Source of the DNA: a virus
Lineage: Duplodnaviria; Heunggongvirae; Uroviricota; Caudoviricetes
Length of the DNA: 42,538 nt
Strand: one strand, 5' to 3'
IMG/VR virus record: IMGVR_UViG_2537561945_000004
In this document: positions 6,672-6,938 of the stretch, one piece after another
How positions within the stretch are numbered: position 1 is the stretch's first letter
How the letters are laid out: every line of letters begins with the position of its first letter
Notes under the pieces: model-generated
The model's database searches: none
Seen by the model: the letters and a program-made list of their open reading frames with translations, nothing else
Told to the model about the DNA's origin: nothing
Translations under genes and position numbers: made by a program

Positions 6672-6759
6672 TTTACATCGCACTCCTCTTGTGCCATAGT
6701 AATCGGGCACTGGCAAAATCCAGTGCCGGGATTGGCGTCCCGGGTTACTAAGTGGCGCA

Positions 6760-6787
6760 TACCACGCCAGACGTGGTTTTTTTATGC
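6760..6787 (+). terminator. Intrinsic terminator/attenuator inside antirepressor leader
   Basis: Hairpin ACCACG-CCAGA-CGTGGT followed by TTTTTTT; preceded by two further GC-rich hairpins (6704-6743). Confidence 0.5.
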
Positions 6788-6938
6788 GTTAAGCACAGCT
6801 ATATCCGAATTATGGTGGGCTGGGCAGGGGTCCGAAAGGACACCGGTACCACTTAGGCCGGTACGCCAACCTTGTCCAGTTCACCACCAGTAATTGGCGT
6901 TGCGGTGGTGATTAAAATCACTAAGTGGAGATAACCAC

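Follow-up and report, generated by a model that had tools for sequence, protein, structure and literature searches.

We investigated what is encoded between the divergently transcribed 242-aa gene and the BRO-N antirepressor gene (ant), which starts at 6940, in an epsilon15-like (Uetakevirus-type) E. coli prophage. The window is the whole stretch of DNA analyzed (42,538 nucleotides), and the locus under study is 6672–6938. The initial annotation described this locus as a structured leader with its own terminator, an attenuator or a small-RNA switch acting on the ribosome binding site (RBS) of the antirepressor. A scan of the whole window against Rfam at the curated thresholds gave three matches: one tRNA elsewhere, isrK (E-value 1.7e-12), and the C4 antisense RNA (E-value 3.5e-10). 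In a permissive scan, the c4-a1b1 model (RF03163) matched 6694–6746 with 44.1 bits, just under its gathering threshold (GA) of 46.7; the isrK model thus passed its gathering threshold and the c4-a1b1 model alone did not. We conclude that the leader is very probably an immI-type antirepressor control module of the P1/P7 kind. For this reading, the family membership, anatomy, complementarity, co-variation, and geometry were established in the present analysis, and the RNase P processing, the translational repression, and the activation by a short RNA are derived from homologues. The features of the locus are listed in Table 1.

Table 1. Features of the antirepressor leader and its surroundings in the window.
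Feature	Position	Strand	Remarks
Divergent 242-aa gene	5814–6542	−	
Perfect operator palindrome ATTACCTTAAAGGTAAT	6562–6578		Adjoins start of the divergent 242-aa gene; same motif family as 6655–6671
Operator-like site ATTACCTTTGCGGTAAA	6655–6671		Abuts −35 of the leader promoter
Sigma-70-like promoter (predicted)	6672–6700	+	−35 TTTACA 6672–6677, 17-nt spacer, TG-extended −10 CATAGT 6695–6700
IsrK-type / c4-a1b1 leader RNA, 77 nt	6707–6783	+	Rfam isrK RF01394, full length, 67.7 bits, GA 50
Leader hairpin 1	6707–6726	+	
Leader hairpin 2	6727–6742	+	a1 in loop
a1 UUGGCGU	6732–6738	+	Loop of hairpin 2; complementary to a′
b1 CUAAGUGG (DNA CTAAGTGG)	6748–6755	+	Linker between hairpin 2 and terminator; complementary to b′
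Intrinsic terminator	6761–6783	+	Stem 6761–6777, 6 bp, 4 GC, 5-nt loop, then T7
c4 antisense RNA	6808–6891	+	Rfam C4 RF01695, 63.6 bits, GA 45, model 1–87 of 87
c4 P1 stem	6813–6829/6870–6886	+	
c4 P2 hairpin	6830–6841	+	GAAA (GNRA) tetraloop
c4 P3 hairpin	6842–6862	+	11-nt loop holding b′
b′ CCACUUAG (DNA CCACTTAG)	6849–6856	+	P3 11-nt loop
a′ ACGCCAA	6863–6869	+	Whole 7-nt junction, P3 to 3′ strand of P1
Alternative hairpin	6881–6911	+	c4 3′ strand UCACCACC 6881–6888 pairs with GGUGGUGA 6904–6911; a2 in loop
a2 UUGGCGU	6894–6900	+	5 nt after predicted c4 3′ end; pairs with a′
b2 CUAAGUGG	6921–6928	+	Overlaps first two G of the ant Shine-Dalgarno GGAG 6927–6930; pairs with b′
ant (BRO-N antirepressor)	6940–7651	+	ATG 6940; Bro-N Pfam 1.4e-16; frameshifted

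The mature c4 RNA is predicted to span 6814–6888 (75 nt) by alignment to the mature ends given in the P1 record. The minimum free energy (MFE) structure of this segment was identical to the Rfam consensus fold (−42.6 kcal/mol) and left both a′ and b′ unpaired. The two elements are complementary to the downstream sites a2 and b2, of which b2 lies at the RBS, and a second copy of the target, a1/b1, is found upstream of c4 on the same strand. Among 89 distinct sequences, the P1 stem was paired in 99.9% of cases, with compensatory changes. The energies of the isolated helices were −12.6 kcal/mol for b and −9.6 kcal/mol for a. When c4 was combined with either the ant leader or IsrK in RNAcofold and duplexfold, cofolding, which is unable to represent loop-loop contacts, yielded no net gain, and the energies of the isolated helices are the informative values. 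The features of an RNase P substrate are present, namely U6813 (−1), G6814 (+1), and a 3′ ACCA (6886–6889). The c4 RNA of P1 is an RNase P substrate, and by homology the enzyme would also release c4 from a longer precursor in this prophage.

Upstream of c4, the leader RNA shows the architecture of IsrK: two 5′ hairpins, a1 in the loop of the second, b1 just 3′ of it, and a Rho-independent terminator, in a total of ~77 nt. The terminator that the initial annotation placed at 6760–6787 is real, with its stem at 6761–6777 followed by T7 and its end at 6783. Three hairpins had also been reported; the short RNA contains two hairpins plus the terminator hairpin, and the three-helix RNA at 6808–6891 had not been recognized as a unit. 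In the homolog alignment, six of the seven pairs of hairpin 1 were changed on both sides. A candidate helix around the terminator (6755–6760/6784–6789) appeared by eye to co-vary, but its register shifts in the alignment, and the alignment-free control was weak (6.35 nt versus 5.49 nt).

The two repeats that had drawn attention to the locus, ACTAAGTGG (6747–6755) and CACTAAGTGGAG (6919–6930), were found exactly as described. Their complement CCACTTAG is present, but its coordinates are 6849–6856 and not 6851–6858, a shift of 2 nt. A CCGGTAC direct repeat flanking the complement does occur, at 6843–6849 and 6858–6864, but its two copies are really the two strands of the CCGG-palindromic P3 stem of c4. 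Rather than being a cis element of the leader, the complement sits in the P3 loop of a discrete antisense RNA of family RF01695. A second triplet of elements (TTGGCGT, ACGCCAA, and TTGGCGT; a1, a′, and a2 in Table 1) had been missed, as had the c4 repressor between the repeats, and the design is that of P1/P7 immI and does not differ in kind from known systems. In regards to the statistics, 4 copies of CTAAGTGG or its complement were counted in the 42.5 kb versus 0.8 expected, and none of 100 shuffles reached 4. Three of the four copies lie within 181 nt, in the orientations that the pairing requires. The initial annotation had named RNA folding and the conservation of pairing in related sequences as its checks; in the former, the fold of 6700–6945 gave z = −4.33 relative to shuffles.

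To follow the pairing across homologs, we fetched 13 annotated phage loci by similarity, P1 included, and added ~90 genuine loci by a 14-mer scan of viral contigs; ~22 of the 120 loci returned had matched by chance in unrelated DNA and were left out. C4 was found in all 13 phage loci, and isrK or c4-a1b1 was located ~25 nt upstream of it in 12; Aaphi23 carries C4 with a different upstream sRNA. In each of the 13 loci, both an upstream and a downstream site can pair with the loop and junction of c4, and the sequences differ between phages. The homolog alignment comprised 92 sequences, of which 89 were distinct. Over the 89 distinct loci, a′:a2 was paired at 99.2% and a1:a′ at 97.8%, with both-sided changes at 5 of the 7 pairs in each case. 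The covariation score of the a-elements was reached by none of 500 shuffles, and all slid controls scored far lower. The table of a1/a′/a2 triplets contains 14 types and ~12 real specificities, since one row is a chimera (L093) and another is an alignment shift.

The column-based co-variation of the b helices gave 46–61% paired because of indels in the alignment, and it was replaced by an alignment-free test that compares pairing within the own locus with pairing across loci. For the P3 loop, the mean length of the longest exact complement in the own locus was 7.3 nt (b1) and 8.5 nt (b2) versus 4.1 and 4.5 nt, respectively, in loci with other loops. About 20 b-types were distinguished, and the a and b types occur in differing combinations. 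For example, CCACTTAG is accompanied by ACGCCAA here and in L064 but by AGACCAA in L033, and the TL-2011b-type c4 has the b′ element CCUUUUAG with the same a′ as here. The b2 element lies over the Shine-Dalgarno sequence in the window and most loci and over the first codons in the PhiR26_1 type. The core of the initial proposal, a small-RNA switch that acts on the antirepressor RBS through ACTAAGTGG and CCACTTAG, holds up: the three copies co-vary across the 89 distinct loci, and the pairing potential is conserved in related sequences.

Transcription of the module was examined at the level of predicted promoters and operators. The predicted start lies at ~6705–6707, about where the isrK match begins, and every homolog group keeps a −10-like hexamer at the corresponding position of the alignment. 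The operator at 6655–6671 proved to be real as a motif, being one of ~18 copies of ATTACC-N5-GGTAAT in the window (36 strand-hits versus 2.4 expected). Kropinski and co-workers reportedly described such 17-bp sites in 2007; a search of a limited body of literature for an epsilon15 operator consensus found none. Some of the sites are clustered upstream of the gene for a 194-aa HTH_3 protein (36122–36706), which is the putative binder of the operator at 6655–6671. In all of 12 related Uetakevirus-type loci, the site lies directly against the −35; its half-sites are conserved and its 5-nt center varies. Because the operator abuts the −35 and this arrangement is conserved across related loci, the operon appears to be under direct repressor control, like that of P1. 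We considered and rejected a separate promoter for c4 in the spacer that follows the terminator: none was predicted, the spacer is not conserved as a −10, and the c4-like RNA of Gifsy-1 needs the isrK promoter. The one promoter predicted for the module is thus that beside the operator, whereas P1 has an additional constitutive c4 promoter, and it is therefore uncertain whether c4 is made in a lysogen of this prophage.

We compared the module with immI of P1/P7 (Citron & Schuster 1990; RF01695, RF03163), which has the same RNA family and fold and the same order of elements: a1, b1, c4 (with a′ and b′), a2, b2, start codon. In the P1 GenBank record, a1 is 7 nt, b1 8 nt, c4 77 nt, a2 7 nt, and b2 8 nt, followed by the icd start codon; the lengths of the a and b elements (7 and 8 nt) are identical in the window. 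The gaps differ by at most 2 nt between P1 and the window: 7 and 9 nt from a1 to b1, 3 and 5 nt from c4 to a2, 22 and 20 nt from a2 to b2, and 10 and 11 nt from b2 to ATG, respectively. Both systems have b2 at the RBS, a repressor-type operator at the operon promoter (the C1 operator in P1), and an antirepressor downstream. Specificity lies in the a/b sequences of P1 and P7, where they underlie heteroimmunity, and would do so here as well; these sequences are TTGGCGT/CTAAGTGG in the window and TTGACAG/GTTAGTG in P1.

The two systems differ in several respects. P1 is a plasmid prophage with a repressible and constitutive pair of promoters, whereas the window is from an epsilon15-like podovirus prophage, has one predicted promoter, and has b1 and c4 separated by a clear intrinsic terminator. 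The Ant protein of the window is of the BRO-N type, with an N-terminus unrelated to that of P1 Ant1/2. Furthermore, the target in P1 is the Shine-Dalgarno sequence of the upstream gene icd, which the window lacks. The reading frame that begins at the c4 AUG (6812) has 14 codons and ends at a stop (6854–6856) inside b′, 86 nt before ant. Because this AUG opens so short a frame, the target in the window is the Shine-Dalgarno sequence of ant itself.

On this basis, and with the functional steps borrowed from the homologues, the module is predicted to work as follows. A single promoter (6672–6700), with a repressor-type operator abutting its −35, would fire towards ant. Most transcripts would stop at the terminator and yield a ~77-nt IsrK-like RNA in which a1 is exposed by a hairpin loop and b1 by a linker that is single-stranded. 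Transcripts that read through would contain c4 (~6814–6888), in which a long stem resembling a tRNA acceptor encloses the GAAA hairpin and a second hairpin, and RNase P would release it. The junction element a′ and the loop element b′ would then bind their complements a2 and b2 in the ant mRNA, and since b2 overlaps the Shine-Dalgarno sequence, c4 would block ant translation and thereby stabilize lysogeny and immunity. The a1/b1 copies in the leader or short RNA, which are identical to a2/b2, would compete for c4, and a promoter burst that produces more short RNA than c4 would relieve the repression. The a and b sequences would serve as an interchangeable specificity code.

The terminated short RNA postulated by the initial annotation is therefore retained as a predicted ~77-nt species, but with another role: it is not the repressor and would carry target-mimic (decoy) sites, matching IsrK, which is an activator in Gifsy-1. 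A plain attenuator is unsupported. Competition of a1/b1 with a2/b2 for c4 was proposed by Citron and Schuster and restated by Weinberg et al. (2010), who described the c4 and c4-a1b1 motifs; we infer that the same decoy logic may apply in this phage. Repression of the antirepressor and type-specific immunity by c4 are likewise predictions here, made by analogy for a gene that is a BRO-N antirepressor homolog. In P1, the silencing of ant requires C1 repression of the operon plus C4.

The isrK-orf45-anrP locus of Gifsy-1 (Hershko-Shalev et al. 2016; RF01394; STnc1160) provides the closest functional data. Like the window, it contains isrK, C4, and an antirepressor gene in this order, and in the Gifsy-1 sequence we found isrK, c4-a1b1, and C4 upstream of anrP. 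Both have a 77-nt terminated leader RNA, the a-element pair UUGGCGU/ACGCCAA, and a c4 that is encoded beyond the terminator and requires read-through. The b-element is UCGGUGA in Gifsy-1 and CCACUUAG in the window, and the Gifsy-1 locus lies beside antQ in a lambdoid phage. In the IsrK numbering, a1 is U26–U32, the c4 AUG is A107 (the "first AUG of orf45" of the paper), and a′ is A158–A164. On this numbering, the compensatory pairs validated in Gifsy-1, G28:C162 and G31:C159, fall exactly on a1:a′ and are therefore a1:a′ pairs. IsrK supplied in trans raised anrP translation ~140-fold, and mutations in a′ raised basal translation 120- to 230-fold (Hershko-Shalev et al. 2016). STnc1160 is a ~80-nt processed RNA dependent on the isrK promoter, and it coincides with C4 in the Gifsy-1 sequence; IsrK and STnc1160 are abundant in Gifsy-1 lysogens, with expression in every condition tested. 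Binding to Hfq and activation of antirepressor translation in trans are known for the IsrK of Gifsy-1 only.

The authors of the Gifsy-1 study favor an intramolecular structural switch, in which a1/b1 pair with a′/b′ within the long transcript and lock the mRNA in a translationally inactive form, and the short RNA acting in trans displaces this helix and opens the RBS. A separate processed c4 repressor is not needed in such a scheme. Native-gel and compensatory-mutation data for isrK-orf45 stand behind it in Gifsy-1, and the same complementarity is present in the window. Moreover, mutations of a1 in cis raise basal translation in Gifsy-1, which a pure decoy model does not predict. The window also contains the alternative hairpin 6881–6911, which is mutually exclusive with the P1 stem of c4 and is used in the MFE structure of the whole leader. 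This hairpin was paired at 97.6% in the homolog alignment, with 3 of 8 pairs changed on both sides; given this conservation, the 3′ strand of c4 is able to refold, and we infer that the hairpin may have a functional role.

The Gifsy-1 model, however, works through the translation of orf45, which starts at the c4 AUG (A107), spans c4, a2, and b2, and overlaps the anrP AUG (AUGA), whereas the corresponding frame of the window closes after 14 codons; leader-ORF coupling of the orf45-anrP type is absent from the window. The switch also leaves unexplained why a2/b2 match a′/b′ in every locus and why the RNase P-type ends of c4 are conserved, and the whole-leader MFE structure keeps c4 folded on its own. 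We therefore regard an exclusive switch of this type as an unlikely account of the module, with the reservation that it is compatible with the c4-repressor model and that the two are not mutually exclusive.

A control of transcription resembling that of P4 is less probable still. In this scheme, c4 would pair with sites on the nascent transcript and cause premature termination, at 6761–6783 or through Rho, and ribosomes would not be blocked. P4 immunity (CI RNA, seqA/seqC) resembles the module in that RNase P releases a small RNA from the leader of the operon under control, and this RNA has complementary sites on both sides of it. The analogy was raised by the authors of the Gifsy-1 study, and 5 nt separate b1 from the terminator stem that follows it. 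In P1, c4 also reportedly lowers downstream transcription through its translational repression (Biere, Citron and Schuster 1992). The P4 CI RNA, however, terminates transcription of the replication genes prematurely and belongs to another Rfam family, whereas the downstream site in the window covers the Shine-Dalgarno sequence and the RNA belongs to C4. The position of b2 over the Shine-Dalgarno sequence in most loci, or over the first codons in the PhiR26_1 type, points to ribosome occlusion. Furthermore, co-expressed STnc1160 did not have the effect expected of a termination factor in Gifsy-1, and no terminator follows a2/b2 in the window.

The remaining reading, a constitutive terminator with chance repeats and no RNA–RNA regulation, or else a protein-coding region (ORF 6582–6893 or 6752–6856), can appeal to ORFs that exist mechanically and to public records of relatives that annotate CDSs over the region, but it is opposed by the Rfam matches, the motif statistics, compensatory changes that keep pairing and not codons, and frames over c4 that are not conserved between loci, and it is effectively refuted by the co-variation. 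The frame from the c4 AUG was rejected as a coding candidate together with these two ORFs, the stop within b′ being a further point.

A cis-antisense arrangement like P22 sar was also considered as a candidate. Immunity region immI of P22 (sar/ant) is similar in that a small RNA inhibits antirepressor translation at the RBS, beside a podovirus tailspike gene. The sar RNA, however, is a cis-antisense transcript of the opposite strand, whereas the regulator in the window shares a strand with its target and makes two short loop contacts. The sar model (RF00262) gave no match at the gathering threshold in the window or at E ≤ 1 in 6560–7060, in agreement with the earlier remark that the sequence differs from P22 sar/ant. 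No minus-strand promoter was predicted downstream of the ant RBS, and the sar-like reading was rejected.

Returning to the immI-type module, we find it functional-looking but already known in kind. It has a new specificity pair and a minimal architecture without a leader ORF, and no new mechanism is involved. An "unknown structured leader" is replaced by a specific annotation, namely two ncRNA genes and their target sites, and two separately reviewed literatures, those on P1 c4 and on Salmonella IsrK/orf45/STnc1160, are joined. A swappable a/b specificity code is relevant to the prediction of cross-immunity and cross-induction among co-resident prophages.

As a more tentative proposal, which may well prove wrong, the IsrK-type short RNA could be a co-transcribed sponge for c4, with the ratio of terminated leader to read-through c4 setting the antirepressor decision. 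If this is true, "orf45" of Gifsy-1 would essentially be the c4 gene read as an ORF. The epsilon15-like lineage lacks the leader ORF and has b2 directly on the Shine-Dalgarno sequence of ant, and it would therefore be a natural minimal version of the system in which coupling to a leader peptide is dispensable. As a corollary, the ~12 a-types and ~20 b-types in their mixed combinations would constitute a modular two-key immunity code shared by lambdoid, P1-like, and epsilon15-like phages.

In regards to the state of the antirepressor gene, the frameshift is an extra C in the run at 7233–7237, which is C5 here and C4 in the intact relatives L064 and TL-2011b. The switch of frame was seen by tblastn, and the RefSeq note reads "frameshifted"; judged from its sequence, ant in the window is a pseudogene. 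An IS lies ~1.3 kb downstream. Given the frameshift and the nearby IS, the module may be a relic in this lineage.

The segment 5000–8235 of the window is identical in E. coli BE311, F41, K99S, and EC24.26; among phages, TL-2011b and ZX5 are the closest. Phage ZX5 carries the same module; its homologous Ant promotes lytic growth on over-expression, and the ZX5 paper makes no mention of the RNAs. In the RefSeq and GenBank records, the two ncRNA genes and the target sites are unannotated, and several records place spurious CDSs over c4 or the leader: ZX5 has an "ash family protein" there, PhiR47_1 a long "Rha protein", and VT2-Sakai orf34. The module was found in 406 of 5,426 complete E. coli genomes (~7%).

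The 3′ strand of c4, the antisense RNA complementary to a1 and b1 upstream and to a2 and b2 downstream, can also take part in an alternative hairpin that holds a2 in its loop. This hairpin is 97.6% paired, is kept across the compared loci with some compensatory changes, and is mutually exclusive with P1, the long enclosing stem of c4. The hairpin may time the folding and processing of c4 against the presentation of the target. A second possible pairing, between the segments just after b1 and just after the terminator U-run, can enclose the terminator in read-through transcripts; judged by eye, the changes that other loci show in it seem compensatory, but the controls for this were weak.

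Coordinates of the features discussed in the window and in the compared loci
Feature	Source	Position	Strand	Details
Operator palindrome	window	5442-5458		precedes 85-aa ORF
LexA (SOS) box	window	5495-5514		near-consensus, TACTGTATAAATATACAGTT; precedes 85-aa ORF
85-aa ORF	window	5534-5791	+	
Possible pairing	window	6755-6760 with 6784-6789		GCGCAU with AUGCGU
Alternative hairpin	window	6881-6911		UCACCACC (c4 3′ strand) with GGUGGUGA (just 3′ of a2)
IS3-family element	window	about 8236-9553 and beyond		InsC/InsD-like ORFs 8280-8690 and 8648-9553; resemble IS2
tRNA gene	window	26921-26994		inside prophage; 73.3 bits; anticodon loop reads UCU (Arg)
ATTACC-N5-GGTAAT sites	window	starts 5442, 6562, 6655, 7716, 26584, 27200, 27223, 30102, 30120, 33658, 33720, 35666, 36003, 36051, 36763, 36825		
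"ash family protein" CDS	ZX5 (L003)	674-787		over c4 or isrK leader
Hypothetical protein CDS	Klebsiella phage (L004)	645-842	minus	over c4 or isrK leader
orf34 CDS	VT2-Sakai (L006)	563-736		over c4 or isrK leader
"Rha protein" CDS	PhiR47_1 (L009)	152-1300		1149 nt; starts upstream of isrK

The module varies among the compared loci. In the PhiR26_1 type (L007), b2 (716-723) lies just after the start codon and not on the Shine-Dalgarno sequence. The module of the IMG/VR contig L093 (6398-6687, minus strand) pairs a1 with a′ (TTGGCGT/ACGCCAA) but carries TTGGAAC as a2, and its b2 has no match to b′. This chimeric module is either a natural recombinant, in which no repression of the downstream gene by c4 is expected, or an assembly artefact. 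Control of an Ant by a c4 module is not universal; the gene downstream of the module in L030 (7236 onward) encodes an unrelated 168-aa protein.

In public phage records, c4 or the isrK leader, the terminated RNA that carries a1 and b1, is overlaid by annotated CDSs, which are probably artefacts of annotation. In Gifsy-1 (L135), "orf45" begins at the conserved c4 AUG and covers c4, a2, and b2. No ncRNA is annotated at the locus in the RefSeq record of BE311, the one RefSeq E. coli record examined. The Rfam models isrK, which belongs to no clan, and c4-a1b1, a member of clan CL00128, match overlapping coordinates in Gifsy-1 (34131-34329, minus strand), and likewise in L005 and L006; the two models appear to describe one and the same element.

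In regards to ant itself, the N-terminal BRO-N part of the protein is only 54% identical to the Ant of TL-2011b and the C-terminal part is 98.5% identical; ant is a mosaic gene. One extra nucleotide in the C run at 7233-7237 (C5 in the window versus C4 in TL-2011b, L042, and L064) splits the gene. Further downstream, the IS3-family element interrupts the DUF4760 gene of the window. Identity with BE311 stops at about position 8235, and compared with the 540-nt CDS of BE311 the DUF4760 ORF of the window is cut short.

The 85-aa ORF is 42% identical to the C-terminal half of Ant (E 1e-16), and its gene lies directly upstream of the c4 promoter in ZX5, L064, L033, and L030. By analogy with the small LexA-controlled antirepressors of the Gifsy phages and Tum of 186, which it may resemble, its product may be a small antirepressor under LexA control.

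The 17-bp palindrome ATTACC-N5-GGTAAT is scattered over the window (36 strand-hits versus 2.4 expected), mainly in intergenic gaps; this epsilon15-like phage thus has a layout like that of the many scattered operators of P1. Sites cluster between a 76-aa ORF on the minus strand and a 194-aa HTH_3 protein (36122-36706), which is probably the prophage repressor.

A borderline match to the P22 sar RNA (44.8 bits versus a GA of 43) was found in TL-2011b (L002) at 6218-6285, where the c4-ant module of that phage lies about 2.9 kb upstream of the match; the window contains no counterpart above threshold. The tRNA gene of the window lies between the operator-like sites at 26584 and 27200/27223.
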